From Dehalococcoidia bacterium (GTDB lineage Bacteria > Chloroflexota > Dehalococcoidia > UBA6926): DNA of 64,000 nt. The translations under genes were made by a program, and so were the position numbers. The stretch lies in NCBI GenBank assembly GCA_963666115.2, contig CAXXET010000004.1, positions 320,001-384,000 of the forward strand, written 5' to 3'. Under the pieces are notes generated by a model that did no database searches, was not told the origin of the DNA, and was given only the letters and a program-made list of their open reading frames with translations. Shown one piece after another: positions 8 through 57,880 of the stretch (position 1 is the stretch's first letter; every line of letters starts with the position of its first letter).

Positions 8-793
8 GTGGTGTTTTTGCACGGGATCGGCGGGGGCATCGAGGATTGGTGGGCGAACCTCGGTTATTTCGGCGAGCAGGGGTATCACGTGCTCGCGCCG
101 AGTATGCCGGGGCATGGGAAATCGGAGTATCACCCCGATGAATGGGATCCAGCGGAGAGCGGCAAGACAGTCATCGCGCTGCTGGACGCATGGGGCATCG
201 ATTCCGCGCCCCTGATCGCGCACTCGGCCGGCGGGATTGCGGCGATACTGGCCGCGCTGGAGTTTCCCGAACGGGTGGAGTCGCTGGTGCTGGCCGCGCC
301 TGGCGGGCTGACGCGCAAGATGGGGTGGCCGCTGCGGCTCGTGACCATCCCGTTCGTAGGGGAGGCGATGTGGCATCCGCGGCTGCTGGCCGGACACCGC
401 GCCCGCAAGACGATCTTCGCGGATGAGAACCTGGTGAATCACACGATCATGGACGAGTGGGTGGCGCGGCACCGCGACCCGCAACAGCGCAAGGCGTTCT
501 TTGACCTGCTTCGCAGGGGAATGGATATTCGCGGGATGAAGCGGCCCTATAACCTGCGGGGGCGGGCGCGGGATGTGCGTTGCCCGACGCTCATCTTCTG
601 GGGGCGGGAGGATATGATTGTGCCTTCGCCGGAGACACGGGACGGGCGGTTAATGACGTGGCCGGAGGCGGAATTCCGGGAGCTATCGCCGTGCGCGCAT
701 TGGCCGCAGGTGGAGCAGGCGGAGGTTTTTAACAGGGAGGCGGCGGGGTTTTTGGCACGGGCGGGGGTGGATTCTTCGCTGCGCTCAGAATGA
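8..793 (+). CDS. alpha/beta fold hydrolase (MhpC/BphD-like); 5' end may lie before the window
   Basis: HGIGG oxyanion motif, AHSAGG nucleophile elbow, WGREDMI acid and CAHWPQ catalytic His; the C-terminal DSSLRSE* is encoded by a repeat. Confidence 0.85.
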   Translation: MVFLHGIGGGIEDWWANLGYFGEQGYHVLAPSMPGHGKSEYHPDEWDPAESGKTVIALLDAWGIDSAPLIAHSAGGIAAILAALEFPERVESLVLAAPGGLTRKMGWPLRLVTIPFVGEAMWHPRLLAGHRARKTIFADENLVNHTIMDEWVARHRDPQQRKAFFDLLRRGMDIRGMKRPYNLRGRARDVRCPTLIFWGREDMIVPSPETRDGRLMTWPEAEFRELSPCAHWPQVEQAEVFNREAAGFLARAGVDSSLRSE

Positions 794-795
794 CA
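770..795 (+). repeat. family A hairpin repeat GATTCTTCGCTGCGCTCAGAATGACA; supplies the stop codon of the hydrolase
   Basis: near-identical 26-mer found 8 times in the window. Confidence 0.9.
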
Positions 796-856
796 GACGG
801 GGCGGAAAAGGGATTGGTTTGGCGGGGGTCGGGGGCATATAATCGGCGTGGAGACC

Positions 857-3800
857 ATGTTCACGCACCTGCACACCCATTCGGAGTTCAGCCTGCTGGA
901 TGGCTTGTGCCGCATTCCCGACCTCGTCGGGCACGCCTGTGAACTTGGATTCGAGTCGCTTGCCCTGACCGATCACGGGAGCCTGTACGGCGTCGTCGAT
1001 TTCTATCGAGAGGCCCAAGAGGCGGGGATCAAGCCAATCATTGGCGTTGAGGCGTACGTCGCGCCAGGGAGCAGGACGGATCGCACGCCGGGCAACAATC
1101 AGCCGTATCATCTCGTCCTCCTCGCCAGGAATGACGAGGGGTACCACAACCTGCTGCGGCTTGTCAGCATCGCCCACCTGGAAGGCTTCTACTACCGGCC
1201 GCGGATGGACCGGGAGGTGCTGGAGCAGTACGGGGCGGGGCTGATCGCGCTGTCGGCGTGCATGGCAGGCGAGGTAGCCCGGGCGCTGACGGAAGGCCGG
1301 CTTGACGATGCGCGAGAGGCGGCGCTGTGGCACAAGAAGACGTTTGACGGGTATTACATCGAGATCCAGCGGCACCCGGGCATTGCGGAGCTTGACCGGC
1401 TGAACGCCATGCTGCTCGACCTGGCGCAGGAACTGGATATTCCCATTGTCGCAACGAATGACCTGCACTACACGCGGCGCGAGGATTCGGACGCGCACGA
1501 CGTGCTGCTGTGCATCCAGACGAACTCTACTGTCGATGACACGAACCGGATGCGGATGGACGACGACGGTTTCTACCTGAAGTCCGAGGCGGAGATGCGG
1601 GAGTTGTTCGCGGATCTGCCGGAGGCGATTGAGAACGCGGGACGCATCGCGGACGAGTGCAACCTTGAGTTGGAGTTCAACCGGCTGCTGCTGCCGCAGA
1701 TTGAACTGCCGGACGGGCTGTCGTCGTTCGAGTACCTCGAGCAGCTCTGCTACGAGGGATTTGAGCAAAGATACGCGGAATACGCGGACACGGAGGGGGC
1801 GCGCCAGCGCGTGGCGTATGAGCTGGACGTTATCCGCCAGATGGACTTCGCCGACTATTTCCTGGTGGTGTGGGACCTGGCGGCGTACGCGCGCAAGCAG
1901 GGAATCCTGGTGGGGGTGCGGGGGAGCGCGGCGGCCAGCGCGGTCCTGTACTGCCTCTATATCACGAATATCGAGCCGCTGCGCTATGACCTCGTCTTTG
2001 AGCGATTCCTGAATCTTGAGCGCAAGGAGATGCCGGATATCGACCTGGACATCGAGGACGAGCGGCGGGATGAGTTGATCGACTACGTGACGCGGCGGTA
2101 CGGACAGGACCGCGTGGCGCAGATCATCACGTTTGGGACGTTCGGGGCGCGGGCGGGCATCCGCGACGTCGGGCGGGCGATGGGGATGTCGTTCAACGAC
2201 GTGGACCAGGTGGCGCGGCTGCTGCCGGCGGGCGCGCATCCGTCATCGTTGCAAGACGCGCTCGACCGGCTGCCGCAGTTCAGGGAGGCCTACGACGGCG
2301 ACGAGACGGTGCAGAAGCTGGTCACGACGGCTATGCAGCTGGAGGGCATCGCGCGGAACGCGAGCACGCACGCGGCGGGGGTGGTGATCTCACGGGAACC
2401 GCTGGTCAACGTGGTGCCGCTCCAGCGGCCGGTGAAGAGCGCGGGTTCAGACGACGACGGCGTGCCGATGACGCAGTGGGACATGCACCGCGTGGCGGAG
2501 GCGGGGCTGCTCAAGCTCGACCTGCTGGGGCTGACGAACCTGACGACGCTGGCGCGGACGCGCGACCTGATCGAGCAGCGGTACGGCAAGCGCATCGACA
2601 TCGACTCAATTCCCCTTGACGATGCGAAGACCTTCGACCTGCTGTCCGCCGGCAAGACGATGGGCATCTTCCAGCTTGAGGGACAGGGGATGACGCGGTG
2701 GATACAGCGGCTGCAGCCGCAGACGTTGAATGAAATTTCGGCGATGATCGCGCTGTACCGGCCGGGGCCGATGGAGCATATACAGCACTATATCGACAGC
2801 AAGAAGGGCAAGATTTCCGTCACGTTTCCGCATGACGACCTAGCCGATATTTTGCATGAGACGTACGGCGTGATCGTGTACCAGGACCAGGTGCTGCAAA
2901 TTGCGCAGCGCTTTGCGGGGTACAGCCTCGGCCAGGCGGACATCGTGCGCAAGGCCATGGGCAAGAAGGTGCGGGAGATCATGGAGGCGGAGGAGCAGGG
3001 CTTCCTCGACGGGGCGCTGCAACAGGGGTACTCGCAGACCCAGGCGCGGGACATCTTCAAGCTCATCGAGCCGTTCGCGGGATACGCGTTCAACAAGGCG
3101 CACAGCGTGAGCTATGCGTACATCGCGTACCAGACGGCGTATTTCAAGGCGAACTATCCGCGTGAATACATGGCATCCCTGCTGAACGCGCATTTGGGGT
3201 CGCAGGACCGGGCGGGGGCGGACGCGGAGGAGTGCCGGACACTCGGGCTGACGGTCGCGCCGCCAAGCGTGAATGCAAGCACGGAGGAGTACTCAATCGA
3301 CGATGCCGCCGACCCCAACGACGACGCATCCGGGGAGGACGCGGTCATTCGCGTGGGGCTTTCGGCAATCAAGAACGTGGGGTACGGGGCGGCACAGTCG
3401 CTGGTGTCTGAACGAAAGGCGAACGGGCCGTTCAAGGACCTGGGCGACTTCATCGGGCGGGCGGATTTGACGTCGCTCAACCGGCGCGGGCTGGAGAACC
3501 TGGTCAAGGCGGGGGCGCTGGACGACCTGGGGGAACGCGCGACGCTGCTTGAGAACGTGGAGCGCATCCTGTCGTCGTCGGCACAGCAACAACGTCAGCG
3601 CAATTCGTCGCAAACAAGCATGTTCGACGCGATGGCAGACGACCCTGCCCTGTCGATCCCAAGCATCGAGCTAGCGGAGGCAGAGCAACCGGCGTCGAAT
3701 GAGGAGAAGGGGTCGTGGGAGAAGGAGTTGATGGGAATCCACTTCTCCAACGATCCGTACCGGGTGCTGCGCGCGGCGCGGTTGCCAGATGACCTAACGC

Positions 3801-4573: not shown

Positions 4574-4577
4574 TTAT

Positions 4578-4799
4578 ATGGAATGGACGCACCTGGCGAC
4601 GATGGACGACCAGATCAGCGCGGAGCTGCTGGTCCAGGCCCTGCGGGATGAGGGCATCGAGGCGCTGGTCAACCAGGGTGATACGAGCAGCTTTCTTGGC
4701 GTGATGGGACAGCCGTGCCGCGTGATGGTGCGGGCGGACGCATGGGGGCGGGCGACGGCGCTGTTGGAGAAGTGGGATTCTTCGCTACGCTCAGAATGA
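4578..4799 (+). CDS. DUF2007-like (putative signal-transducing) small protein
   Basis: AELLVQALRDEGIEA...CRVMVR pattern; directly follows dnaE; ends in repeat-derived DSSLRSE*. Confidence 0.7.
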   Translation: MEWTHLATMDDQISAELLVQALRDEGIEALVNQGDTSSFLGVMGQPCRVMVRADAWGRATALLEKWDSSLRSE

Positions 4800-4820
4800 C
4801 ATTATGCGGTCAGAATGACA
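4776..4820 (+). repeat. family A repeat plus a partial second copy (TCAGAATGACA)
   Basis: GATTCTTCGCTACGCTCAGAATGACA at 4776-4801; partial copy at 4810-4820. Confidence 0.9.
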
Positions 4821-4827
4821 TGGGGGG

Positions 4828-5286: not shown

Positions 5287-5344
5287 TGGATTGCTCCTTT
5301 TGATTGTGGCGTATGGGGGGATTGTACGCCTTTTGGGGGGATAA

Positions 5345-5369
5345 ATTCTTCGCTGCGCTCAGAATGACA
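5345..5369 (+). repeat. family A repeat downstream of mutL
   Basis: ATTCTTCGCTGCGCTCAGAATGACA. Confidence 0.9.
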
Positions 5370-5376
5370 TTCGGGG

Positions 5377-7209
5377 TTAGCGGCGGCCGAATTGGCGTTC
5401 AAGTTGGGCGGAGCTGAGGTGGACCATCGTCGGGCGGCCGTGGGGGCATAGGCGGGGGAAGTTGGCGTCGCTGAACAGGGTGATCAGGGACTCCATTTCG
5501 GCGAGGGAGAGGGTCTGACCGGCACGGACGGTGGAGTGGCAGGCGATGGTGGCTGCGACGCGCCTTTCCCGCATATCGACGGCGTCCGCGGCCTGGGTGA
5601 TTACGGTATCAGAAGTATCAGCTTCATCAGGGGAGGACTGGATTCCCGCTTTCGCGGGAATGACGGAGGGGTAGTCGTCGATTTCGCCGCCGGAACGCTC
5701 GTCTAGGACTTCGAGGAAGGCTTGCGGGGCCTCTGATTCTTTCAGCGTCGCGGGCATGGCGCGGAGGAGGATAGCATCGTCGCCGAACGTCTCCCACTCG
5801 AACCCGTAGGACGATAGGAGATCGCTCAAGGGGGCGATGGCATCCTGTTGGCGAGTTGTGAGTTGGACGGTGGCAGGCGTGAGGAGGCCCTGCGACGTGG
5901 CGGTCTGCTCTCTGCGCCCGGCGAGGATCTGTTCAAAGACGACGCGTTCATGGGCGGCGTGCTGATCAATGAGGTACATGCCGTCCGGGCCTTCGGCGAC
6001 GATGTAGGTGAGGCCGACCTGGCCGACGGGGCGGAGGGTGAATTGTTGCGGGGGGGGCGGTGCGCCACTGTGTTCGGTTGCCGAATTGGGGTCAAGATTC
6101 CCGCTTTCGCGGGAAAAAGGAGAGGGGGGTGGGAAGAGGGGCGGGGGTTCGAGTTGGATTTCGGCGTCGGGGGGGGCGGAGGGGATTGGGGTTCCTGCTT
6201 GCGCGGGAACAACTGCTGGGAGGTGGACGGCGAGGGTGCGGCGGAGGGCGCGCTGAACGGTTGCGATGACTTCGCCCTCACGCCGCAACCGCACTTCTGC
6301 CTTGGTGGGATGAACGTTGACGTCAATCTCATCGGGCGGGACGGTGACAAAGAGGACAACGAGGGGATAGCGCCCTCGCTGGATGATGTCGCGGTAGGCG
6401 TCGGCAATGGCGTAATAGAGGATGCGGGCCTCAACCAGGCGTCCATTGATAAAGAGAATTTGGCCAGCGCGGCGCGGGCGCGTGGTGCCCGGCTCACTGG
6501 CATAGCCCGAGACGGTCGTTCCGCCCATGGTGGTGGGCTGGATGGGAAGCATACCGGACGCGGTGTCCGGGCCCCACATTTCGAGCAGGACATGGGAAGC
6601 ATCGCCGCTGCCGGGTGAGTGGAACGCGAGGCGTCCATCGACGATGACACGGAGAGCGACATCGGGGTGCGCGAGGGCGTACTGAGTGAGGACGGTAACG
6701 CAGCGCGTCGCCTCGGCGGCGGCTGAGCGGAGGAATGAGAGGCGGGCGGGAACGTTCTTGAAGAGGTCGCGGACAAAGACGGTGGTGCCGAACGGCGCGC
6801 CCTGCATGCCCCGCTCGATGATGTCATTGTCGGCGGCGATGACGTACTGGCCGCCCTCAGTATCCGAAACGCGGGAGACGATTGTCATGCGGGCGACGGC
6901 TGCGATAGAGGCAAGAGCCTCACCGCGAAAGCCGAGAGTGCCGATGCGCTCAAGGTCCCGGACTGTTCGCAACTTGGACGTGGCGTGGCGCATGACGGCG
7001 AGTTCAAGTTCATCCTCCGGGATGCCGGATGCGTCGTCGGTAACGCGGATGAGGTCGAGGCCGCCACGCACGATTTCAACTTCGACCTGGCCGGCGCCGG
7101 CGTCGATTGCGTTTTCGACCAGTTCCTTGACGACGGACGCGGGGCGTTCGATGACCTCGCCGGCAGCGATCTTGGAGGCTACGTCTCGGTCGAGGAGTTG
7201 GATGGGCAT
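5377..7209 (-). CDS. mutL: DNA mismatch repair endonuclease MutL
   Basis: IAAGEVIERPASVVKELVEN, GFRGEALAS, DVNVHPTK, DQHAAHER, ACH and CPHGRP motifs. Confidence 0.97.
   Translation of the reverse strand: MPIQLLDRDVASKIAAGEVIERPASVVKELVENAIDAGAGQVEVEIVRGGLDLIRVTDDASGIPEDELELAVMRHATSKLRTVRDLERIGTLGFRGEALASIAAVARMTIVSRVSDTEGGQYVIAADNDIIERGMQGAPFGTTVFVRDLFKNVPARLSFLRSAAAEATRCVTVLTQYALAHPDVALRVIVDGRLAFHSPGSGDASHVLLEMWGPDTASGMLPIQPTTMGGTTVSGYASEPGTTRPRRAGQILFINGRLVEARILYYAIADAYRDIIQRGRYPLVVLFVTVPPDEIDVNVHPTKAEVRLRREGEVIATVQRALRRTLAVHLPAVVPAQAGTPIPSAPPDAEIQLEPPPLFPPPSPFSRESGNLDPNSATEHSGAPPPPQQFTLRPVGQVGLTYIVAEGPDGMYLIDQHAAHERVVFEQILAGRREQTATSQGLLTPATVQLTTRQQDAIAPLSDLLSSYGFEWETFGDDAILLRAMPATLKESEAPQAFLEVLDERSGGEIDDYPSVIPAKAGIQSSPDEADTSDTVITQAADAVDMRERRVAATIACHSTVRAGQTLSLAEMESLITLFSDANFPRLCPHGRPTMVHLSSAQLERQFGRR
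5641..5664 (+). repeat. family B hairpin repeat GATTCCCGCTTTCGCGGGAATGAC, in frame inside mutL (VIPAKAGI)
   Basis: exact 24-mer; related copies at 6096, 12326, 15528, 22057, 30707, 34823, 45391, 46785, 50120 and 50155. Confidence 0.9.
6096..6115 (+). repeat. family B repeat, in frame in the MutL linker (FSRESGN)
   Basis: GATTCCCGCTTTCGCGGGAA. Confidence 0.85.
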
Positions 7210-7210
7210 A

Positions 7211-9892: not shown

Positions 9893-11191
9893 ATGAGGGA
9901 ACGTGGATCGACTGTTGAGGCTGGGCAGGGCGCGGCGGCGGGGCGGCGCCTCTATACACGTTCTTTCGTCCTGCTGTTCCTGATGGAGTTCACGATCTTC
10001 GTGACCTTCTACATGCTGCTGCCGACGGTGCCGCTGTACATCAAGGAGTTGGGCGGCACAAATTCGACCGTTGGGCTGGTCATCGGCATCGCCGGGCCCG
10101 TCGCGGCGTTCGGCGTCCCCCTGTACGGGCTGGGCGTGGACAGGTGGAGCCGCAAGGGAATGGCGGTTCTCGGATTGATGATCAACGTTGCCGGCGCGCT
10201 GGTGATGATCATCGTCGTGTCGCCGCTGATGATGCTGATACCGACGATTCTGCGGCGCGTGGGGTCCGGCGCAACGGGGGCGGCGACGCGGACGCTGATC
10301 CTGGACATTGCGCCGCCGAGCAGGCGCGGCGAGGCGATGACGAACTTTGCCACGTCGCACAACATCGCCATCGCGTTTGGGCCCGCCGTTGGGCTGTGGA
10401 TCTATCACGGTTTCGGATCGACGGAACTGTTCCTTGCGTGCGCTGCGGTGATGGCGGGGGCGGCGTTGTTTTTGTGGCCTGTGGGCGGACGCCCTCACCC
10501 TAGCCCTCTCCCGGGGGGAGAGGGGGCAGCGGCTGGCGACGCCAAACGTGTCCCAGAGGGAGAAGAGAGCGGAGAGCCGCGACGGGAGACGTGGGTGGAC
10601 AAGTTGATTGTGCCGGAGGCGCTTGTGCCGGGGATCACGGTGCTGCTGTTGTCCGCAGCGTACCTGGCAACGACGACATTCGTGTCCATCCTGGGAGAGA
10701 CGCGGGATGTGCCGAATTACGAGTGGTTCTTCGTGCTGTACGCGGTCGTGGTTATTTCCGGGCGCCTGCTGACAGGCCGCGTCTCCGATACGTATGGCCG
10801 GGCAATTATCCTGCTACCGTCGCTGGCGCTGACGGTGGGGTGCATGGTGACGCTGGCGTTTACGTATTCGACCGCCGGGTTCCTCGCGGCGGCGTTCATG
10901 CTGGGGCTGGGGTTTGGAACAGGACAGCCAATGCTGCAAGCCCTCGCGGCCGACTGGACACCGCCGGAGAAGTACGGGCGCGCGATGTCCATGATGATGG
11001 GCGGTTTCTCGTTCGGCTCGGCTGCGGGAACGGTATTCGTTGGCGAGGTGAGCGAACGACTGGACTTCACGGCGGCGTTCCTGGGGCTGGCAGTGTCGGC
11101 CGGCATTGCGCTGCTCATCGCGTGGTGGGGATTCCGGCGGCGCCGGATCCCGGTGTTTGGGGCGGCGGCGCGGCGGGGTACAATCGGATAG
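9893..11191 (+). CDS. MFS transporter
   Basis: about 12 hydrophobic segments; GVDRWSRK and GRVSDTYGR motif-A loops. Confidence 0.9.
   Translation: MRERGSTVEAGQGAAAGRRLYTRSFVLLFLMEFTIFVTFYMLLPTVPLYIKELGGTNSTVGLVIGIAGPVAAFGVPLYGLGVDRWSRKGMAVLGLMINVAGALVMIIVVSPLMMLIPTILRRVGSGATGAATRTLILDIAPPSRRGEAMTNFATSHNIAIAFGPAVGLWIYHGFGSTELFLACAAVMAGAALFLWPVGGRPHPSPLPGGEGAAAGDAKRVPEGEESGEPRRETWVDKLIVPEALVPGITVLLLSAAYLATTTFVSILGETRDVPNYEWFFVLYAVVVISGRLLTGRVSDTYGRAIILLPSLALTVGCMVTLAFTYSTAGFLAAAFMLGLGFGTGQPMLQALAADWTPPEKYGRAMSMMMGGFSFGSAAGTVFVGEVSERLDFTAAFLGLAVSAGIALLIAWWGFRRRRIPVFGAAARRGTIG
10492..10526 (+). repeat. family C repeat CCCTCACCCTAGCCCTCTCCC..GGGAGAGGG, in frame in the MFS central loop (PHPSPLPGGEG)
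   Basis: related copies at 21977-22011 and 34178-34214. Confidence 0.85.
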
Positions 11192-12325: not shown

Positions 12326-12349
12326 GATTCCCGCTTTCGCGGGAATGAC
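12326..12349 (+). repeat. family B repeat between convergent genes
   Basis: exact 24-mer. Confidence 0.9.
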
Positions 12350-15527: not shown

Positions 15528-15547
15528 GATTCCCGCTTTCGCGGGAA
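15528..15547 (+). repeat. family B repeat
   Basis: GATTCCCGCTTTCGCGGGAA. Confidence 0.85.
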
Positions 15548-15559
15548 AGCGGATTCCAG

Positions 15560-16987: not shown

Positions 16988-17014
16988 CCCTTCGACTGGG
17001 CTCAGGGTGAGCGG
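16988..17014 (+). repeat. family D hairpin repeat CCCTTCGAC..GCTCAGGGTGA
   Basis: second copy at 41588-41613; partial copy at 19331-19343. Confidence 0.75.
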
Positions 17015-19323: not shown

Positions 19324-19363
19324 CCCCCTGTCAGGGTGAGCGGGGGGCACAATTGAGGCTTTA

Positions 19364-19411
19364 GATTCTTCGCTGCGCTCAGAATGACATGAGGGCGGTT
19401 TCAGAATGACA
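19364..19411 (+). repeat. family A repeat plus partial copy
   Basis: full copy at 19364-19389; TCAGAATGACA at 19401-19411. Confidence 0.9.
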
Positions 19412-21976: not shown

Positions 21977-22011
21977 CCCCTCACCCTAACCCTCTCCCAG
22001 AGGGAGAGGGG
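21977..22011 (+). repeat. family C repeat
   Basis: CCCCTCACCCTAACCCTCTCCCAGAGGGAGAGGGG. Confidence 0.85.
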
Positions 22012-22044: not shown

Positions 22045-22128
22045 CTACGAGTTCTGGATTCCCGCTTTCGCGGGCAAGACGAGGCTGCTGGCCGGAACGA
22101 GGGGCATGTGCATATCAAGATTAATCAT
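22045..22128 (-). pseudogene. possible relic of a VapC/PIN toxin N-terminus running into a family B repeat
   Basis: MINLDMHM.. overlaps the antitoxin end and resembles the PIN start MxxLDTH; then reads VLPAKAGIQNS* from the repeat at 22057-22080. Confidence 0.45.
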
Positions 22129-22408: not shown

Positions 22409-24853
22409 CTATCTCAGCGCGTCGGCGGCGGCGAGTTCGCGGGTTTCTTCCTGGCCGATGCCGAGAATCTCGGTGAGGATGGCGTCCGTGTGTTCGTTGA
22501 GCATGGGGGCTCGGCGGAGTTCGCCTGCGTATTCGCCGTTGACTTGCCAGGGGACTTTGGCGGTGCGGCGCGGGCCTGCCTCCGGGTGGTCGATTGTGGC
22601 GAAGAAGTTTCGCGCTTGGGGGTGGGGGTGTTCGACTACTTCCAGCGGGTCGAGGATGGGGGCGGCGGAGACGCCGACGGCGGCGAGTTCATCGGCCATG
22701 GTGTATTTGTCTCGCGACTTTGTCCACGCGGCGATGATGTCATCGAGCGCGGCCTCGTTCTGCTTGCGGGATTCAGGGGTGGCAAAGCGGCTATCGTTGG
22801 CAAGGTCGTTGATGGCGCTGGACAAGCCAGTCCATTCGGAATCAGTGCGGGCGGTTATGGCAATCCATTGGTCGTCACCGTTGGCGGGGTAGATGTTGTG
22901 GGGGGCGTGGAGGGGGTGGTGGGAGCCATCGCGTTGGGGCGTGTAGCTGCCCGTGGCGCGGGCGACCATCGGCTCCGTGATGAGCGTCATGAGGGCTTCG
23001 GTCATTGCGACGTCGACATGATGCCCCATGCCGGTGCGGCGGCGGTCGTGGAGCGCGGTCAGCGTGGCCATGGCGGCGTAGGTGGCGGAGACGACGTCCG
23101 GGAAGTAGGAGCCGAGCAGCCGCTGGTGGCCGCCTGCGTAGCCGGTGACGTCCGTGAGGCCGCAGAAGGCGTTGATGATGCTGTGGAGGCCGCTGTAGTC
23201 CTTGAGGGGGCCGCTCCTGCCAAAGGCGGCGACAGACGTGTAGATGACACGGGGGTTGAGGGGGGCGATGTCTTCATAGCCGAGTCCCCACCGCTCCATG
23301 AGGCCGGTGGAGAAGTTCTCAAGCACGATGTCCGCGGACGCACACAGGCGGCGGGCAACGCCCCTGCCCTCTTCGGTCCGGAGGTTGATGGGGATGGCGC
23401 GCTTGCCCATGCTGAGCGTGTTGTAGGCGCCGGCGCGGTTCATGCCGGGAATCTCATTGGCGAACGGGGGCGAGTTGCGGAAATCGGCGGGGTTCTCACG
23501 GCTCTCAACCTGGATGACGTCCGCGCCGAGGGCGGCGAGCCACTTGGCGCAGTACGGGATGGCGATGTATTGGCCGAAGTCAATGACGCGGATGCCTTTC
23601 AGGGGGAGGGAGGGGGTGGGAGGATTCTTCGCTGCGCTCAGAATGACATCGTTTGCGTCAGTGGCATTGTTTGCGCCGTTGACTGATGTTGGCGCGGGGA
23701 CGGAACCATCGGCCTCCGGCTTGCCGGATTCGTTGCGGGGGTAGCCGGTGAGGATGAACGGCGCGCCGGTGAAAGGGACTTCCTGGCCGTCCTGCGTGGC
23801 AACCGCGCGGATGAAACGGCGCTCGCGGACGTGTTCGTGGGTCAGAACCTGGTCGAGGGTCGTGGACCAGAACGCGGGGATGTTGCGGGCTTGCAGCTCT
23901 TCTGTGATTTCCTTGCCGGTACGCTCCATCGTCCAGTTGGTCATCAGGACGCTGACGACGTCCCAGTTCATGGCGCGCTTCGTGCCATCGTCGAAGTCCT
24001 CCGTGTAGGCCCACTCCGGGCTGCCCATGACCTCGGCGAACTGCTCCCAGTGGCGGGCGCTCATGGCGACGATGACGATCCAGCCGTCCTTGCACTCGAT
24101 GTAGCAGTTGGGCTGGCGGGCAAGGATGTTGGGGCCGCGATCAAGCACACGCTCCAGGTATTCGCGCTGCAGAACGGGGTGGTAGTTGAGGGCGGTGACG
24201 GCCTCGAGTTCGGAGAGTTCGATGCGCGTGCCGGTGACGCCCGGCCCTGTTCCGTTGCCACTGCCGGATTCCGCGTAGAGCGTGGCGAGCGTGGCGACGA
24301 CGCCGACTGCGCCGGCCATGAGCGATGGGACGGACGCGCCGGTGGGCATGAGCGGCGGTTCATTGGGGAGATCATAGGTGGTGTCCGGCGGGCCGGGGGT
24401 GGTCCACGCCATGCCGCAGAGCGACCACGTTGCGAGATCGCTGGGCGGGAGGTTCGCAAGCGGGCCGTCCGCGCCGTAGGGCGTGAGAGAGACGACGGTC
24501 AGATGGGGGTAGCGGGCGTGGATGGCGTCCCAATCAAGGAAGGAGTTGTCACCGTCGAACAGGCCAACGTCCTCGATGAGGATGTCCTGCCCATCAAGGG
24601 CTGCGACCAGGGATTCCGGCGTGACGGTTTCGGCGTCAGTGTCAGAGCGGTGGGACTTGTTGGCGTTGAGGGAGCGGTGGAGCATGGGGTCCCATTCCGG
24701 CATTTCGCGTCCCTTGAGGCGGACGTAGAGGTTCCTCATGCGGCGGACGCGGTCGACGTCCGCGCCAAGCTCGCCGAGGAGGCGGGCGGCGTAGGCTCCG
24801 GCGAACGATGCGGTGACATCGACAACTCGCAGATGCGACAGCGGACCTGACAT
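22409..24853 (-). CDS. tandem double-domain CaiB/BaiF (family III) CoA-transferase
   Basis: two domains (PLSHLRVVD..; PLKGIRVIDF..) with ADIVLENF and GHHVDVAM motifs. Confidence 0.9.
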   Translation of the reverse strand: MSGPLSHLRVVDVTASFAGAYAARLLGELGADVDRVRRMRNLYVRLKGREMPEWDPMLHRSLNANKSHRSDTDAETVTPESLVAALDGQDILIEDVGLFDGDNSFLDWDAIHARYPHLTVVSLTPYGADGPLANLPPSDLATWSLCGMAWTTPGPPDTTYDLPNEPPLMPTGASVPSLMAGAVGVVATLATLYAESGSGNGTGPGVTGTRIELSELEAVTALNYHPVLQREYLERVLDRGPNILARQPNCYIECKDGWIVIVAMSARHWEQFAEVMGSPEWAYTEDFDDGTKRAMNWDVVSVLMTNWTMERTGKEITEELQARNIPAFWSTTLDQVLTHEHVRERRFIRAVATQDGQEVPFTGAPFILTGYPRNESGKPEADGSVPAPTSVNGANNATDANDVILSAAKNPPTPSLPLKGIRVIDFGQYIAIPYCAKWLAALGADVIQVESRENPADFRNSPPFANEIPGMNRAGAYNTLSMGKRAIPINLRTEEGRGVARRLCASADIVLENFSTGLMERWGLGYEDIAPLNPRVIYTSVAAFGRSGPLKDYSGLHSIINAFCGLTDVTGYAGGHQRLLGSYFPDVVSATYAAMATLTALHDRRRTGMGHHVDVAMTEALMTLITEPMVARATGSYTPQRDGSHHPLHAPHNIYPANGDDQWIAITARTDSEWTGLSSAINDLANDSRFATPESRKQNEAALDDIIAAWTKSRDKYTMADELAAVGVSAAPILDPLEVVEHPHPQARNFFATIDHPEAGPRRTAKVPWQVNGEYAGELRRAPMLNEHTDAILTEILGIGQEETRELAAADALR
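23623..23648 (+). repeat. family A repeat, in frame in the inter-domain linker (VILSAAKN)
   Basis: exact 26-mer inside the CDS. Confidence 0.9.
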
Positions 24854-30706: not shown

Positions 30707-30749
30707 GGTTCCCGCTTTCGCGGGAATGACGGATGGGGGCGGGAATGAC
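30707..30749 (+). repeat. family B repeat plus partial copy
   Basis: GGTTCCCGCTTTCGCGGGAATGAC then GCGGGAATGAC. Confidence 0.85.
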
Positions 30750-34177: not shown

Positions 34178-34214
34178 CCCCCTCACCTTAACCCTCTCCC
34201 CCAGGGAGAGGGGG
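34178..34214 (+). repeat. family C repeat; supplies the C-terminus and stop of the upstream minus-strand ORF
   Basis: CCCCCTCACCTTAACCCTCTCCCCCAGGGAGAGGGGG. Confidence 0.85.
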
Positions 34215-34777: not shown

Positions 34778-34822
34778 GGCGTCCTCCTGCTAGCTGCATC
34801 GCTACTTCCTCTGCGGCTTCTG

Positions 34823-34846
34823 GATTCCCGCTTTCGCGGGAATGAC
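34823..34846 (+). repeat. family B repeat
   Basis: exact 24-mer. Confidence 0.9.
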
Positions 34847-34881
34847 GGGTGGTGACTAGGCAACGGATTGCTCCTGACGCG

Positions 34882-38308: not shown

Positions 38309-38433
38309 TCGGTGGTGAATACCTGTCCAGTATACGCGGTTGGCGCCGAAACAAGTGAATAGGTCAAGGGCGGTCATTTTGCACTGACCGGCGGTCTTTT
38401 CCAGTGGGTAGGAAACGAGGTTAAGTAGTAAGC

Positions 38434-41425
<2,992 letters not shown>

Positions 41426-41587: not shown

Positions 41588-41613
41588 CCCTTCGACAAGC
41601 TCAGGGTGACCGG
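41588..41613 (+). repeat. family D repeat
   Basis: CCCTTCGACAAGCTCAGGGTGACCGG. Confidence 0.75.
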
Positions 41614-41670: not shown

Positions 41671-42702
41671 ATGCAGCTTCGGAAACTATCCGGCGGACTC
41701 AAGGATGCGTACCGCGGGTCGAACGTCGCCGGCCGCGTGCGAGATTTCGACGGATGGCTCGCCAGGGCGTCCGCCGATGACGGGGACGGCTACGACCACG
41801 CGGCAACGGTCAAGGAATACTACGACCTGTGCAGCGAGTTCATGGTGTACGGATGGGGCGAGTCCCTGCACTTCGCTCCCCTTTCGCCCACGGAGAGCCT
41901 GGAGGAGTCCAAGGCACGGCACCAGCGGTTGATGATCGAGAAGCTGGAGCTTGCGGAGGGGATGACGGTCATCGACGTTGGCTGCGGGCTGGGCGGGCCG
42001 ATGCGCCGCGTGGTCAGCGAGGGCGGCGTCAGGGTCGTTGGAATCAGCAACAGCGAACTCCAGTTGGAGAAGGCGCGCGCGCTGAATGCCGAGGCGGGAA
42101 TCGACGACATGGTCGATTACGTGGCGTGCAACTTCATGGACATGGGCGTTATTGCGGACAACACGTTCGACCGGGGATACGCGATTGAATCCACGTGCCA
42201 CGCGCCGGACAAGGCAGGCGCGTTCGCGGAGATCTACCGGGTGCTGAAGCCGGGCGCGCTGCTGTGGGGCCAGGAGATGTGCATGACGGACGCGTTCAAT
42301 CCCGATGACGATCAGCATCGCACCATCAAGCAGGACCTCATGCGCGGCATTGCGCTCAACGGCATCGCGACGACGCAGGAGGTGGACTGGACGCTGGAAG
42401 CGGTAGGGTTCGAGGTGATCGAGGGTATGGATCGGGGCGTGGTGGAGGACGATTTGGCGACGCCGTGGTACAGGCCGATGGAGAATCGGCACGGGACGGT
42501 GGGCAACGCCCTGCGGAGGACGCCGCTGGGGCGCAAGGGGATCATGTGGGGGTCAAAGCTGGCGGAGTTGGCCAGGGTATTTCCCAAGGGGTCTACGGAC
42601 GTGATCGGGCTGCTGGACCGGACGGCGAATGCGTACGTGGCGGGCGGGAAGACGGGGATATTTTCGCCGCTCTATTGTTTTTTGGCGCGGAAGCCGGGTT
42701 AG
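41671..42702 (+). CDS. sterol 24-C-methyltransferase-like (SMT/Erg6 family)
   Basis: YYD..YGWGESLHFAP (region I), IDVGCGLGGPMR (SAM binding), YAIESTCHAP (region III), C-terminal GGKTGIFSPLY..LARKP. Confidence 0.88.
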   Translation: MQLRKLSGGLKDAYRGSNVAGRVRDFDGWLARASADDGDGYDHAATVKEYYDLCSEFMVYGWGESLHFAPLSPTESLEESKARHQRLMIEKLELAEGMTVIDVGCGLGGPMRRVVSEGGVRVVGISNSELQLEKARALNAEAGIDDMVDYVACNFMDMGVIADNTFDRGYAIESTCHAPDKAGAFAEIYRVLKPGALLWGQEMCMTDAFNPDDDQHRTIKQDLMRGIALNGIATTQEVDWTLEAVGFEVIEGMDRGVVEDDLATPWYRPMENRHGTVGNALRRTPLGRKGIMWGSKLAELARVFPKGSTDVIGLLDRTANAYVAGGKTGIFSPLYCFLARKPG

Positions 42703-42746
42703 ATTCTTCGCTGCGCTCAGAATGACAAGCCGCGCTCAGAATGACA
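42702..42746 (+). repeat. family A repeat plus partial copy; the partial copy supplies the stop of the convergent peptidase
   Basis: full copy at 42702-42727; GCGCTCAGAATGACA at 42732-42746. Confidence 0.9.
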
Positions 42747-44948: not shown

Positions 44949-45434
44949 TCAGCCTTGCGCAACTGCCTGTACAGGTGATTCTACAACGGAGACGGTTCCC
45001 GTCATACCGGGGTCCGAATGGCCGGGGATGGAGCAGATGAGATCGAATTCGCCGACCTTCGTTGGCGTGAAGCGAACTGTCTTCTTGGAACCAATCCGCA
45101 TCGATCCCGTTGCGACGCTGAACTCCTCGATGACGAGATCGTGGTCGACGGTGCCGAGGTTCCTGAACTCGATGACGGCTTCCCGGTTCACGGGAATCTC
45201 GATGACATCCGGTTCAAATGCCCATTCGGTGCCGACGACGATGTAGCTGCCGTCGGGTTGGAGGCCCGTCGCGCCGATGTCCTGGTTGTTGTTGCAGGCG
45301 GCGAGGGCGAGGGTGAGGAGAAGGAGGAGGGGGAGATTCTTCGCTGCGCTCAGAATGACATAGCCGATGGATTGCGGGGCCGGCCCGATGGATTCCGGCT
45401 TTCGCCGGAATGAGGGGAAAATACGTTTCGTCAT
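44949..45434 (-). CDS. cupredoxin-domain lipoprotein
   Basis: LALAAC lipobox; H..CSIPGH..GM type-1 copper site; start overlaps the folD stop. Confidence 0.85.
   Translation of the reverse strand: MTKRIFPSFRRKPESIGPAPQSIGYVILSAAKNLPLLLLLTLALAACNNNQDIGATGLQPDGSYIVVGTEWAFEPDVIEIPVNREAVIEFRNLGTVDHDLVIEEFSVATGSMRIGSKKTVRFTPTKVGEFDLICSIPGHSDPGMTGTVSVVESPVQAVAQG
45335..45413 (+). repeat. family A copy (45335-45360) and family B variant (45391-45413) inside the cupredoxin signal region
   Basis: exact family A 26-mer; GATTCCGGCTTTCGCCGGAATGA with a compensatory stem change. Confidence 0.85.
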
Positions 45435-46315
45435 TAGGGGTTTTGGGCGCGGGCGGCGGAGACGGTGTTGCGGAGGAGCATGGCGACGGTCATGGGGCCG
45501 ACGCCGCCGGGCACGGGGGTGATGGCGCTCGCCACTTCAGACACGGCGTTGAAGTCAACGTCGCCGACGATCTTGTAGCCGCTCTTTTGGCTCTTGTCCT
45601 CAACGTGATTGATGCCCACGTCGATGACGACTGCGCCCGGCTTGACCATATCGGCGGTAATGCCTTCGGGGATACCGACGGCAACGACGAGGATGTCCGC
45701 CTGCTTCGTCATTTCACCGAGGTCCGGGGCCGTCCTGTGGCAGACGGTGACGCGCGGATAAAACTTTGGGTCGCCCTGCATCCATGCTGTGGCGATGGGT
45801 TTTCCAACGATATTGCTGCGGCCAACGATGACGGCGTGCTTGCCGCCAAGCTGCACGCCCTCTCGCCGCAGCATCTCCATGACGCCGAACGGCGTGGCGG
45901 GAACGAACTGCGAATCGCCGATGGCGAGGTGGCCGATGTTGAGCGGGTGGAAACCGTCTGCGTCCTTATCGGGCCGGACGGATTCGATGATGGCGTGTTC
46001 CTCGATGTGCGCAGGCAGCGGCAACTGCACGAGGATGCCGTGGACACGGTCTGCGCGGTTCAGCGATTCGATGAGGTCCAGCAGGCCGTCCTGCGACACA
46101 GAGGAGTCGATGCGATGAATCTCCGTGTAGATGCCGACCTCGCGGCAGGCGCGCTCCTTGTTGGCGACGTAGGTTTGGGAGGCGGGGTCATCGCCGACGA
46201 CGACGGCGGCAAGGCCGGGCATGACGCCTTTCGCCTTGAGCGCGGCGACATCACGCGCGACTTCCCTGCGGATGTCTGCGGCGATGGTGCGTCCGTCAAT
46301 GATGCGCGCGGTCAT
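45434..46315 (-). CDS. folD: methylenetetrahydrofolate dehydrogenase/cyclohydrolase
   Basis: GILVQLPLP, KDADGFHP, GRSNIVGKP and TPVPGGVGPMT motifs. Confidence 0.96.
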   Translation of the reverse strand: MTARIIDGRTIAADIRREVARDVAALKAKGVMPGLAAVVVGDDPASQTYVANKERACREVGIYTEIHRIDSSVSQDGLLDLIESLNRADRVHGILVQLPLPAHIEEHAIIESVRPDKDADGFHPLNIGHLAIGDSQFVPATPFGVMEMLRREGVQLGGKHAVIVGRSNIVGKPIATAWMQGDPKFYPRVTVCHRTAPDLGEMTKQADILVVAVGIPEGITADMVKPGAVVIDVGINHVEDKSQKSGYKIVGDVDFNAVSEVASAITPVPGGVGPMTVAMLLRNTVSAARAQNP

Positions 46316-46784: not shown

Positions 46785-46804
46785 GATTCCCGCTTTCGCG
46801 GGAA
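46785..46804 (+). repeat. family B repeat
   Basis: GATTCCCGCTTTCGCGGGAA. Confidence 0.85.
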
Positions 46805-46820
46805 AAACGGAGGGGGCGGC

Positions 46821-50119: not shown

Positions 50120-50178
50120 GATTCCCGCTTTCGCGGGAATGACGAAGGTGAGTGGGTTCCTGCTTTCGCGGGAATGAC
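50120..50178 (+). repeat. two tandem family B repeats
   Basis: copies at 50120-50143 and 50155-50178. Confidence 0.9.
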
Positions 50179-54892: not shown

Positions 54893-55185
54893 GTGAGCAC
54901 ATGTATTACGCGCTCCTGTATGACTATGCGGATGACGTCTTGGAGCGGCGGCCACCGTTCCGGGAGGAGCATCTTGGGCTGCTGCGGGAGTTGAACGCGC
55001 GGGGAATCGTGCCGCTGGCGGGGGCGTGGGACGAGCCGGTGGACGGGGCGGCTATCGTGTTTCGCACGGACGATACGTCCGTCATCGAGGAATTCGTCGA
55101 GAAAGACCCGTATTTCCGCAACGGGCTTGTGAAATCGTGGCGGATCAGGAAGTGGAGCGTGGTGATCGGCGGGGAGAGCAGCTAG
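54889..55185 (+). CDS. YciI family protein
   Basis: RPPFREEHL..AGA..DPY pattern. Confidence 0.88.
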   Translation: MSEHMYYALLYDYADDVLERRPPFREEHLGLLRELNARGIVPLAGAWDEPVDGAAIVFRTDDTSVIEEFVEKDPYFRNGLVKSWRIRKWSVVIGGESS

Positions 55186-56153
55186 GGCGCATCGTCCCAC
55201 GTTTGGGGTTGGAAGCCGAGTTCCTGGGCGATTTGGTCGGGGCCGTAGCCGGTCGGGGTTTCCTTGCGCGTTCGGAGATCGGCGTACAGCAGGAAGATCA
55301 TGACGGCCTGGATAGGGCCGGCAACGGTGGGCGCGACAAGGTTCGAGTACCACGTGCCGACGGTTTCGAGGCCGGCTGCGGCGAATATGACGCTTGGGAA
55401 TTGAACTGCGAAGACGGCGAGCGCGACGATAATCAGGATGCCGAACGTCCGCCACCAGAAACCCTCGGTAAGCTGCCAGCTTCGCCGCAACGCCGCGACG
55501 CCGATTAGCCCGTCAAATGCGACGACCGGCCAAACGAACGTCCAGCGAATCAACACGTATACGGTGATGACAACCGCGCCGACCAGCCCGGTGAATGAAA
55601 GCAGGCCGAAGAGGGCGAGGAGCAGTTCAACGTCGGACATCGCGTTTGCGATGACGAACGGCACGAAGAACAGTACCGCCCACACGGCAAAGACCGTCCC
55701 CATGGCCATCACCGTCGTGACCAGCAGCGCGCCTGCCCGCGCGACCGCGAACGCGAGCGCCTCCGAAATCAGCACCCTGCCGACGACGTAATGCGCGCCG
55801 ATGACGTACATGTACGCGCCTGCGGCGAGGGCGGACACGGAAACGGTGGCGATGAGAACGAGGGACAGTTCCAGCAAGTCCAGCGGAATATCATCCAACT
55901 GGAGTTGGCTGATCTCCGCCGACTGCTCCTCTGTCGGAAGCTGCCCTTCGGGGACGGTGGCCAGGATCGCGTTGATCTGCGCGTCGTTGCCCTCCGGCAG
56001 GATGGCGTCGATGCCAGATACCGCGCCGAAGATGATGACGGCGCTGACGAACGCGATGACGACCAGCCGCACAACGCGCGCCAGGTAGACCGACCAGAGC
56101 TCGCTGAAGAGCTCGTTTATCCCCCTTTCAGGGAATGCGGTTTCGTTCTGCAC
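55182..56153 (-). CDS. hypothetical integral membrane protein
   Basis: ALRRSWQLTEGFWWRTFG and LYADLRTRKE motifs; multiple TM segments. Confidence 0.75.
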   Translation of the reverse strand: MQNETAFPERGINELFSELWSVYLARVVRLVVIAFVSAVIIFGAVSGIDAILPEGNDAQINAILATVPEGQLPTEEQSAEISQLQLDDIPLDLLELSLVLIATVSVSALAAGAYMYVIGAHYVVGRVLISEALAFAVARAGALLVTTVMAMGTVFAVWAVLFFVPFVIANAMSDVELLLALFGLLSFTGLVGAVVITVYVLIRWTFVWPVVAFDGLIGVAALRRSWQLTEGFWWRTFGILIIVALAVFAVQFPSVIFAAAGLETVGTWYSNLVAPTVAGPIQAVMIFLLYADLRTRKETPTGYGPDQIAQELGFQPQTWDDAP

Positions 56154-56158
56154 CGTGT

Positions 56159-56602
56159 CTAGCTGCCGCCCCCGGCCGCGCCCATGCCTGCGGCGCCGCG
56201 CTGCTGGAGCTCGATGAACACCATCTTGGTGCCGAGAGGATGAACCCACGCGACGTTGGCGTTGCCCTCTTCGCGCTGGATGCGGCCGCCCTTCTCCTCG
56301 ATGTTCTTTATGGTCGCCTCGATGTCGTCCACTTCGAGGCAGACCATGTACATGCCCTCGCCCTTGGGGTTCCGCTCATTCTTGCGCTCCTCCATCATGC
56401 GGGCGAGCGCGGTCTCCGGGCCGGCGGGCGTCATGACCTCGATCACGGGCTGGCCGTTGTAGCCGAGCATCTGGGCGCGGATGCCGAACTGGTTGCCACG
56501 CGCCTGGTTGAGTTCCTCAAGGCCGAAGAGGTCTTTCCAGAGCTGGACTCCCTCCTCCAGGTCTTCCACCATGACGGCGTTGTAGCGAATATCGGTGATC
56601 AT
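56159..56602 (-). CDS. VOC family protein (methylmalonyl-CoA epimerase-like)
   Basis: VEDLEE, IEVMTP, GEGMYMVCLEVDDI and VHP..IEL motifs. Confidence 0.85.
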   Translation of the reverse strand: MITDIRYNAVMVEDLEEGVQLWKDLFGLEELNQARGNQFGIRAQMLGYNGQPVIEVMTPAGPETALARMMEERKNERNPKGEGMYMVCLEVDDIEATIKNIEEKGGRIQREEGNANVAWVHPLGTKMVFIELQQRGAAGMGAAGGGS

Positions 56603-56683
56603 CGTCTCCCACCCCTTTCGCGCCCATGCGGCGCTTTCGCTTGCGTGTTGTAAGGGGAGTGTGGGGAATAGGGGCTAGTCGTG

Positions 56684-57292
56684 TCAACGACGCGGGCGTT
56701 CCAGCAGGGCGGGCGGCCAGACTGCGCTGTCCACAACGCCAACGAACGGCAGGTTGCGGTAGAAACCCTCGTAGTCGAGTCCATAGCCGACGACAAAGAC
56801 GGGGTCTATGGAGAAGCCGACGTAGTCGATTTGAACGTCAACTTCGCGGTGGGCGGGCTTATCCAGGAGGGTGCAGACCCTGACTGAGGCGGGGTTTTCG
56901 GCGAGCACCTTATCGACCAGCAGCTTGAGGGTGACGCCGGTGTCCACGATGTCCTCGACTATCAGGACATCGCGGCCCCGGAGGCTCTCGCGGAACGGGT
57001 TGGGCATGTCAACGGTGTGGCCGCGTTCGTCGATGAACCGGTCAACGTGGACAAGCTCTACCGGCGCGGGGATGTCCAATTCCCGCACAAGATCCGCGAG
57101 AAAGCAGATGACGCCGTTCAGCGCGCCGACGCAGACGACCTCGCCGTCCGCGTACTCGGCGCTCAACTGCGCGGCCAGTTCTCTCACGCGGCGTTGGAGG
57201 CGCGTCTTGCTGATGAGGACGCGGTCGACGCCCTTGGCGGCGGGGCCCGCAAGGCCGTTGCTGCGCAGAGGTTTCTGTGTGCCGGAGGCCAT
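56684..57292 (-). CDS. hpt: hypoxanthine phosphoribosyltransferase-like protein
   Basis: VLIVEDIVDTG, LLDKP and FVVGYGLDY..YRNLP motifs. Confidence 0.85.
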   Translation of the reverse strand: MASGTQKPLRSNGLAGPAAKGVDRVLISKTRLQRRVRELAAQLSAEYADGEVVCVGALNGVICFLADLVRELDIPAPVELVHVDRFIDERGHTVDMPNPFRESLRGRDVLIVEDIVDTGVTLKLLVDKVLAENPASVRVCTLLDKPAHREVDVQIDYVGFSIDPVFVVGYGLDYEGFYRNLPFVGVVDSAVWPPALLERPRR

Positions 57293-57333
57293 GTGGAAAG
57301 CATAACGGACGCGGGTGAGCGGCGTATACTTAC

Positions 57334-57861
57334 GTGAGAGTCATGGATATTCTTGCCCTGATAGACCGCATTCGGCAGAATCACGCGATCGAGCACGCGA
57401 CTATTGCCGTGCTGGCGCGGAAGCACGACCAGTTTGGGCGGCTCGGCGGCAATGCCACGCAGGACGGGTTCTTCGTCTATGGCCCGACGACGGCAGACCG
57501 CATCCAGGAGGCGGGGCAGGAGGCGGTGCAGCGGCTGCGGGCGGGGGAATCCGATCTCGCTATTTCGCCGTTCTGCGGCACGAATTTCCTGCTGGGCGGT
57601 GCGACGACCGCCCTTGTGACCAGCATTATCCTCGGCAGGCGCAACAGGATCGGACGGCTGCCGCAGGCGATGAGCCTTTCGGCGCTGGCGCTGATCGGTT
57701 CGTTCAGAGCGGGCGCGTACGTGCAGCGCAGATGGACGACGAAGGCGGACATCGGCGAGCTGGAGATCAAGAGCGTGTCGCGGTTGGGGGGCGCGGGGAG
57801 GCCGCTGCACCGCGTGTACACGGGGTTGGCGAAGGGGGATTCTTCGCTGCGCTCAGAATGA
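57334..57861 (+). CDS. conserved hypothetical protein (DUF6391-like)
   Basis: RQNHAIEHAT...LAISPFCGTN pattern; ends in repeat-derived DSSLRSE*. Confidence 0.7.
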   Translation: MRVMDILALIDRIRQNHAIEHATIAVLARKHDQFGRLGGNATQDGFFVYGPTTADRIQEAGQEAVQRLRAGESDLAISPFCGTNFLLGGATTALVTSIILGRRNRIGRLPQAMSLSALALIGSFRAGAYVQRRWTTKADIGELEIKSVSRLGGAGRPLHRVYTGLAKGDSSLRSE

Positions 57862-57880
57862 CAGGTTTTGTCAGAATGAC
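57838..57880 (+). repeat. family A repeat plus partial copy
   Basis: full copy at 57838-57863; TCAGAATGAC at 57871-57880. Confidence 0.9.

Follow-up and report, generated by a model that had tools for sequence, protein, structure and literature searches.

Four families of short hairpin repeats, here called A to D, are scattered over a 64,000-nucleotide stretch of the genome of a Dehalococcoidia bacterium (contig C4, positions 320,001-384,000; in the following the window), and throughout this genome all four obey one rule: the strand with the GTCA tag is the C-rich one, as judged by the local GC skew, and both the fidelity of this placement and the density of the copies rise with the strength of the skew. 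As Ssn-related hairpins of the NTS/SRM type (SRM, Ssn-related motif), the repeats belong to the CGTC/TGTC-tagged REP superfamily; family B and its variants with a CCGG stem correspond to the published motif. The best reading of the pattern is an asymmetry relative to replication in how copies are retained or spread, and the best explanation, to which we give about an even chance of being correct, combines Ssn-type repeats with a survival that depends on their polarity relative to the replication fork. The element class, the nuclease and the architecture of a gene flanked by repeats are already published, while the replication-strand polarity was not found in print. The present analysis thus adds a strong and mechanistically suggestive polarity, together with hairpin types that are missed by the published SRM search expression.

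Repeat orientation follows the local GC skew

Within the window, family A has eight matches at up to three mismatches, all on the plus strand and none on the minus strand, where dinucleotide shuffles lead to an expectation of 0.00, and family B has 11 matches at the same threshold, again all on the plus strand, with none expected from shuffles. The three copies of family C, the two copies of family D and one partial D copy are likewise all found on the plus strand. A preceding sequence-only reading of the window had listed these copies and the absence of reverse ones; every copy was recovered, with one A copy starting at 5344 instead of 5345 and the D copy at 16988 carrying a 1-nt indel. Only three items point the other way, namely 12-mers with one mismatch at 38654 (in the 23S rRNA gene) and 44999, and a degenerate match to the SRM expression at 45707 (in folD), and these are taken as chance hits. 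GC skew is positive in 16 of 16 4-kb bins of the window (+0.06 to +0.19), the gene content of which is that of an ordinary core chromosome with genes on both strands (dnaE, mutS, mutL, valS, the 23S rRNA gene and metabolic genes).

The whole genome comprises 2.07 Mb in nine contigs, with a completeness score of 100%, and contains 90 copies of family A (at up to three mismatches), 130 of B, 66 of D and 25 of C. Their orientation agrees with the sign of the local GC skew in 277 of 311 cases (A 84/90, B 118/130, D 53/66, C 22/25), and in 230 of 243 cases where |skew| exceeds 0.05 (A 69/71, B 100/107, D 47/50, C 14/15). As the repeats and their G-rich flanks could themselves bias the skew, the test was redone with the skew at third codon positions only (GC3 skew, based on our own gene calls), with the result that 274 of 311 copies are concordant overall and 233 of 257 where |GC3 skew| is above 0.1. 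The strand recognised by Ssn, i.e., the GTCA-tag strand of the SRM matches, is located on the C-rich strand in 105 cases and on the G-rich strand in 16. The genome-wide comparison with skew that the sequence-only reading had proposed therefore shows orientation flipping with the skew, and the random orientation that it had named as the contrary outcome is not seen.

The rule is graded. Across classes of increasing |GC3 skew|, density rises from 5.4 to 29.4 copies per 100 kb and concordance from 64% to 98%, the intergenic fraction remaining constant at 11-13%; over 103 bins, density correlates with |GC3 skew| at a Spearman coefficient of 0.465 (p=7e-7). Neighbouring copies at most 200 nt apart share their orientation in 77 cases and are opposed in three. 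The commonest 12-mers of the genome stem overwhelmingly from families A to D, and their strand ratios are about 10-20:1, reaching 44:0. Wrongly oriented copies are mostly confined to low-skew or transition regions or occur in small groups, such as the five at C8:149.8-150.0 kb.

Transcription does not set the orientation, in agreement with what the sequence-only reading had supposed. Between co-directional genes, the G-strand form is found on the G-rich strand for 74 of 82 copies flanked by genes on the C-rich strand and for 53 of 61 flanked by genes on the G-rich strand. Terminators or mRNA stabilisers, i.e., elements that act at the RNA level and would be oriented with transcription, are contradicted by this independence from the direction of the flanking genes and are very improbable as an explanation, even though convergent regions contain 53 of the 220 copies of A and B, somewhat more than their share of all intergenic regions (141 of 954). 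In addition, the repeats match no Rfam family, the only Rfam matches in the window being the 23S rRNA and two tRNAs, and the RNA form of the motif is not bound by SsnA of Neisseria meningitidis (PMC11893778).

The repeats and an ssnA-type nuclease gene

The NTS consensus of Neisseria (CGTCATTCCCGCGMAVGCGGGAATCYRG), the broader SRM class and the SRM search expression were defined by Chenal et al. (Nat Commun 2025, PMC11893778). Exact matches to the NTS consensus occur 20 times in the genome and twice in the window (5638 and 34820, minus strand), in family B only. The SRM expression has 121 matches in the genome, 88 of them B-type, compared to 28, 24 and 19 in three first-order Markov genomes, and families A, C and D do not match it. 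Direct reading of the minus strand gives TGTCATTCT-GA-GC-GCA-GC-GA-AGAATC for family A and GTCATTCCCGC-GAAA-GCGGGAATC for family B, which agrees with the GTCA tag, the GCGCAGC and GCGAAAGC mini-loops and the positions of tandem G.A mismatches in the sequence-only reading. The likeness of family B to Neisseria dRS3 that had been noticed there is exact, as B is NTS, the oriented form of dRS3.

A GTC tag and a C immediately after the palindrome have been reported as critical for cutting and binding (PMC11893778). Both are present in family B (CGTC-ATTCCCGC...GCGGGAAT-C) and in family A (TGTC-ATTCT...AGAAT-C), so that A has the TGTC tag, the ATTC..GAAT stem ends and the C after the palindrome in common with NTS/SRM. 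Family D has the tag in some copies only (GGTCA, GTTCA or GCTCA), its CTGAGC...CGAAG core is common to A, and family C is devoid of the tag. Under a standard DNA folding model, B reaches -8.9/-9.0 kcal/mol (z -3.6/-4.7) and C -10.0/-9.6 kcal/mol. Families A (-1.7/-1.9 kcal/mol) and D (-3.1/-2.0 kcal/mol) fold no better than shuffles, implying that their 'hairpins' rest on non-canonical G.A pairs, which the model does not score.

SsnA is a 94-aa GIY-YIG protein that binds NTS only as single-stranded DNA and nicks it a few bases 5' of the hairpin; the NTS reverse strand, double-stranded DNA and RNA are not cut, and ssnA genes in many phyla are flanked by SRMs (PMC11893778). In the genome studied here, two proteins match the GIY-YIG profile (PF01541), UvrC and a 98-aa single-domain protein of the SsnA type. 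The gene of the latter (C4:200,673-200,969) is located 119 kb upstream of the window, and its product, in a 101-aa frame, scores 58.9 bits against PF01541 (cut-off 22.6) over positions 3-76 of the 78 of the profile. On both sides it is flanked by GTCATTCCGGCG[AT]AGGCCGGAATCC hairpins, a second small hairpin and D-type units. The trans-acting nuclease that the sequence-only reading had placed outside the window is thus represented by a GIY-YIG gene with repeats on both flanks, one of three candidates it had named, and the published homologue cuts single-stranded DNA only and on one strand only. Genes for the other two candidates, DUF559 and Y1_Tnp/RAYT proteins, were not found in the genome, nor was an IS110 transposase gene.

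The SsnA-type protein has retained the catalytic residues of GIY-YIG nucleases (Y10, Y21, R31, H35, E68 and N87), which are invariant in 14 homologues, and the Tyr-Tyr spacing of 11 is the same as in Neisseria. Judged by this spacing, Y10, Y21 and E68 probably correspond to Y6, Y17 and E64, the catalytic residues of N. meningitidis SsnA (PMC11893778). A search of NCBIfam with the protein gave nothing above cut-off, and a sequence search of the PDB gave no solved relative. Downstream of the gene (C4 ~200,970-201,150), there are five tandem 20-nt units (ccgtcatccccaccccaccc), each consisting of a tag and a partial arm. Throughout the genome, partial arm copies accompany full ones at a distance of 6-12 nt, on the reported cutting side of Ssn, and they may be scars of repair or slippage. 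A conserved module of about 35 nt accompanies many A and B copies on one side and corresponds in congeners to the sequence between the left hairpin and the start of ssnA, so that a large number of solo copies resemble the left ends of ssnA units.

Homologues of ssnA in other phyla were found at 38 loci, the flanks of which were inspected by eye for 20. In 14 of these 20, the gene is bracketed by inverted GTCA hairpins (GTCAT-hairpin, gene, hairpin-ATGAC), each pair with its own stem. Hairpins resembling family A (GTCATTCTGAG and GTCATCCTGAA) lie beside ssnA homologues in Rikenellaceae and Saccharibacteria records.

GIY-YIG nucleases form no covalent intermediate and are incapable of covalent strand transfer. 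This bears on HUH-type single-strand transposition on the lagging-strand template, as in REP/RAYT or IS200/IS605-like systems, which the sequence-only reading had invoked as analogy. The systems are alike in that a tagged hairpin is read as single-stranded DNA by a small nuclease with its gene bracketed by repeats, the 5' tetranucleotide tag followed by a hairpin resembles the GTAG REPs and REPINs, and IS200/IS605 insertions are known to be oriented with replication, their active strand being on the lagging-strand template. However, the tag here is GTCA/CGTC and not GTAG, no match to a HUH/Y1 enzyme was found in the genome (the comparison with IS200/IS605 covers TnpA (Y1), and TnpB was not searched), and, if skew is read in the usual way, the strand recognised here is the opposite one to that of the IS200/IS605 rule. 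Di Nocera et al. likewise found no RAYT flanked by CGTC repeats (PMC3733652). As a mechanism, HUH-type transposition is close to refuted, and we give it hardly any probability.

Several features tie the repeats to the published NTS/SRM and SsnA system (PMC11893778): the minus strand of B is NTS, a single-domain GIY-YIG gene of about 94-98 codons is flanked by repeats, copies are intergenic, clustered and arranged in mosaic arrays, and each ssnA lineage has its own hairpin variants. In contrast to that system, nearly all copies here are head-to-tail and follow the GC skew, the flanks of the nearest ssnA genes are direct instead of inverted, the host belongs to an uncultured genus of Chloroflexota, and families A, C and D are outside the published expression. 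The Chloroflexota rows shown in the genome table of that study (Dehalococcoides, Chloroflexus) have no SRM enrichment. The present result extends the repeat family to uncultured Chloroflexota. The words 'lagging', 'leading strand' and 'skew' are absent from its main text, and 'lagging' and 'skew' from ten of its supplementary files.

A REP superfamily with CGTC, TGTC or CCTC tags 'without a dedicated transposase', including copies inside repair genes, was described by Di Nocera, De Gregorio and Rocco (BMC Genomics 2013, PMC3733652). The present repeats resemble it in their short palindromes, the unpaired CGTC/TGTC/CCTC tag, the lack of a dedicated tyrosine transposase and copies in replication or repair genes, here mutL. 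In that superfamily, however, units are mostly paired in opposite orientation, whereas here same-orientation neighbours prevail. 'Lagging', 'leading' and 'skew' do not occur in PMC3733652. A literature search, with most subscription journals outside its coverage, gave no report of strand or replication bias for Ssn, dRS3 or REP-type repeats, and a search for Chloroflexi with GC skew and multiple origins gave nothing relevant.

Turnover, skew domains and the origin of the polarity

Repeat copies come and go between species of the genus, both at the same intergenic spots and in-frame in mutL. At two dnaE-mutL intergenic spots compared in seven genomes, an A, D, C or B-type copy, a half-site or nothing is found, and the orientation never differs. 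At 5641, the B copy constitutes an in-frame insertion of about 45-54 nt in the region encoding the MutL C-terminal domain; it is absent in four of six congeners, the other two have a different insert at the same place, and no target duplication is visible. The comparison of filled and empty sites in relatives suggested by the sequence-only reading thus shows the same spots filled differently or empty. In the mutL gene itself (5377-7209, minus strand), NTS-type repeats contribute residues to the MutL protein (SVIPAKAGIQ, and in congeners HSRESGNL and VIPAQAGTQ within the linker).

The genus comprises at least 21 further genomes, and 12 of these 21 contain ssnA homologues (44-81% identity, one to three copies each, non-syntenic); none was found in the other nine, nor in six genomes of two sister genera. 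By their flanks, four ssnA lineages can be distinguished in the genus, two with direct and two with inverted repeats, and the lineage of the genome under study (G000) belongs to the direct ones. In a closed congener (G013), orientation is concordant in 22 of 22 copies where |skew| exceeds 0.05 and in seven of nine elsewhere, over the 400 kb examined. G013 contains 111 B-type copies, and the 100 listed form long same-orientation blocks along its closed 1.897-Mb chromosome. Relative to G013, with ten copies at up to one mismatch, G000 shows an expansion of family A (90 copies, at up to three mismatches). Outside the genus, the bias has the same direction and is much weaker: a closed 2.34-Mb Dehalococcoidia chromosome with weak skew (G003) carries 175 copies with a different stem (ATTGCGGC), found on the C-rich versus the G-rich strand in a ratio of 49 to 23 where |skew| is at least 0.03 and of 51 to 52 where it is weaker; for solo copies at |skew| of at least 0.04, the ratio is 26 to 7. 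Two Arenicellales chromosomes have too few copies among the matches listed for their orientation to be judged.

In most bacteria, the strand rich in G and T has the leading-strand sequence and serves as lagging-strand template, which is single-stranded at the fork. The G-rich strand is also T-rich in G000 (r=-0.66 between GC3 and AT3 skews), the usual leading-strand signature, and it is from this composition that we infer the direction of replication. GC3 skew ranges from -0.43 to +0.38 in 20-kb bins while the gene-strand fraction varies freely; the skew thus belongs to the DNA strand as such and does not arise from the orientation of the genes. Its sign changes from minus to plus at least five times in 2.07 Mb, often sharply (C3 ~62-87 kb, C4 ~210 kb, C6 ~158 and ~448 kb, C7 ~185 kb, C8 ~112 kb), and the returns from plus to minus are mostly gradual. 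G000 and G013, about 80-85% identical at the DNA level, are collinear over at least 456 kb and have the positions of skew switches in common; the sharp switch at C7:185 kb, for example, corresponds to ~380 kb in G013. These switches are therefore neither recent rearrangements nor assembly errors, and could mark several replication origins or other conserved domains of strand asymmetry. A search for shared motifs at the skew minima gave no evidence for replication direction; the 'intergenic' stretches at three minima look coding, indicating that the gene caller missed genes there. At a distance of 1.3 kb from the sharp switch at C7:185.5 kb, which is conserved, there is an open reading frame of 504 codons (C7:186,753-188,267, minus strand; open frame 550 codons) with two weak Bac_DnaA (AAA+) matches of 29 and 24.5 bits.

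The conserved switches also bear on a purely passive origin of the pattern, in which copies multiply locally in head-to-tail fashion, through slippage or gene conversion, and inversions move them along with their segment, so that orientation and skew are co-inherited and no strand-specific process is required. Head-to-tail clusters and tandem partial copies are indeed common, and some wrong copies are grouped as in a small inverted block, like the five on contig C8. On the other hand, the 311 copies are spread over all nine contigs, different families in the same orientation at the same orthologous spots require independent events, the collinear switches do not derive from recent inversions, and density and fidelity scale with the strength of the skew. 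A passive origin is therefore distinctly improbable.

The favoured explanation, polar survival, would operate at the fork. The G- and T-rich strand would be the lagging-strand template and hence exposed in single-stranded form. A copy with its recognisable and more stable hairpin strand on this template would be nicked by Ssn, which would break the fork, or be deleted by slippage, and wrongly placed copies would thus be lost, leaving only those with the tag strand on the leading-strand template. The expected outcome would be a single orientation for each replication direction, clusters that are exclusively head-to-tail, and a scarcity of copies in regions of mixed fork direction and low skew. 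The sequence-only reading had envisaged spread at the fork through single-stranded DNA and is partly supported; spread would be one way to arrive at the pattern, and selective loss of one orientation fits the data as well or better.

A number of observations weigh against this explanation. Copies in the wrong orientation carry no more mutations than those in the right one. Family C, without tag and outside the SRM expression, is oriented in 22 of 25 copies, so that Ssn cleavage alone cannot explain all families; A and D are also outside the expression, and their cleavage by the Ssn of this genome is an assumption. The ssnA lineages III and IV and most homologues elsewhere keep inverted flanks, and the 'wrong' orientation is thus tolerated at least there. 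Four closed congeners in which no ssnA was found with the G000 protein hold 25-59 exact B copies in orientation blocks, which indicates that the pattern can persist without Ssn cleavage in the present. Features other than base composition do not reveal the replication direction: there is little gene-strand bias (627 of 1154 genes on the G-rich strand), tRNAs are distributed 21 versus 26 by strand, 16S is on the G-rich and 23S on the C-rich strand, dnaA (C8:66 kb) is not at a skew switch, and no cluster of DnaA boxes was found.

Instead of being lost in one orientation, copies could be inserted in one, a possibility that we hold more tentatively. Tag-strand fragments released by Ssn would anneal through their C-rich flanks to G-rich tracts of the lagging-strand template and join the nascent lagging strand in the manner of recombineering oligonucleotides. 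New copies would then have their tag strand on the C-rich strand already at insertion, matching the direction of the observed bias. On the tag strand of B copies, the 5' flank is C-rich and conserved (CCCCCTCC-GTCATT), and it appears as GGAATGACGGAG(G)n in the most frequent 12-mers. The same G-rich intergenic spots are hit repeatedly, with no target duplication visible, the partial arms next to full copies are on the side of Ssn cutting, and oriented family C would be accounted for if C travels in composite arrays. Furthermore, Ssn acts on incoming single strands in Neisseria (PMC11893778). However, neither an intermediate nor a donor-target pair was seen, ssnA is missing from the results for nine of 21 congeners, and uniform insertion alone would not predict five-fold fewer copies at low skew. 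Polar survival is preferred, as it also predicts few copies at low skew and needs no new activity; the oriented family C, the oriented congeners without detected ssnA and the partial arms on the Ssn-cut side keep polar insertion, or a general strand-asymmetric process, alive.

A full replication-coupled life cycle, which is rather unlikely, would go further: fragments of the tag strand released by Ssn would be incorporated on the lagging-strand template like Okazaki-sized oligonucleotides, and the elements would spread with a nuclease and without a transposase, polarity being built in. If so, orientation and density of the repeats would be a read-out of fork direction and single-strand exposure, which in this genus would show at least five conserved skew domains in about 2 Mb.

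In sedentary chromosomal integrons, the recombinogenic bottom strand of attC sites, which recombine as single-strand hairpins, is kept on the leading-strand template. This is a possible precedent for a reactive strand that is kept off the lagging-strand template, although the enzyme is a tyrosine recombinase and the function differs. The sole function shown so far for Ssn and NTS is the trimming of incoming DNA during Neisseria transformation, and the near-absolute, skew-graded polarity suggests that the repeats interact with the replication fork in vivo. The resulting prediction is that the strand recognised by Ssn is kept off the lagging-strand template. For the proposed use of Ssn proteins as tools for single-stranded DNA, the effect of their expression on a replicating chromosome would be relevant.

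Copies in the window and neighbouring genes

Hairpin repeats of the window, with positions counted from its first nucleotide
Feature	Position	Tag strand	Remarks
Family A	770..795	-	0 mismatches
Family A	4776..4801	-	followed by partial 3'-arm copy at 4808; in congeners, A, D, C or nothing at this intergenic spot
Family A	5344..5369	-	just past the mutL stop; spot in relatives: B-type copy in 2, half-site in 1, empty in 3
Family A	19364..19389	-	preceded by partial D copy (19331) and conserved ATTGAGGCTTT spacer
Family A	23623..23648	-	
Family A	42702..42727	-	partial 3'-arm copy at 42734
Family A	45335..45360	-	head-to-tail with B-type copy at 45391
Family A	57838..57863	-	
Family B	5641..5664	-	exact NTS consensus at 5638-5665 (minus); in-frame insertion in mutL (SVIPAKAGIQSS)
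Family B, degenerate	6096..6119	-	mutL linker region
Family B	12326..12349	-	matches SRM expression
Family B	15528..15551	-	3 mismatches, tag degenerate
Family B	22057..22080	-	matches SRM expression
Family B	30707..30730	-	partial arm copy at 30740
Family B	34823..34846	-	exact NTS consensus at 34820-34847 (minus)
B-type variant, CCGG stem and GAATGAG tag	45391..45414	-	stem as in ssnA-flanking repeats; GAATGAG/CCTCATTCC tag is that of ssnA lineage IV
Family B	46785..46808	-	tag degenerate (GGGAAAAAC)
Family B	50120..50143	-	first of head-to-tail pair
Family B	50155..50178	-	second of head-to-tail pair (with 50120)
Family C hairpin	10492..10525	none	CCCTCTCCC/GGGAGAGGG stem, without GTCA tag
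Family C hairpin	21977..22011	none	
Family C hairpin	34178..34213	none	
Family D	41588..41613	-	minus strand GGTCACCCTGAGCTTGTCGAAGGG
Family D	16988..17014	-	1-nt indel
Family D, partial	19331..19346	-	

Two genes of the window are of separate interest. The 23S rRNA gene (38432-41425, minus strand) is unlinked to the single 16S gene, which is on another contig (C8:186,993-188,503), and the two are on opposite strands relative to the local skew. The plus-strand gene at 41671-42702 codes for a methyltransferase of 343 aa in which a Sterol_MT_C domain (E 8.6e-14) accompanies a CMAS/Methyltransf_11 core, and thus for a protein resembling sterol C-24 methyltransferase in a Chloroflexota genome.

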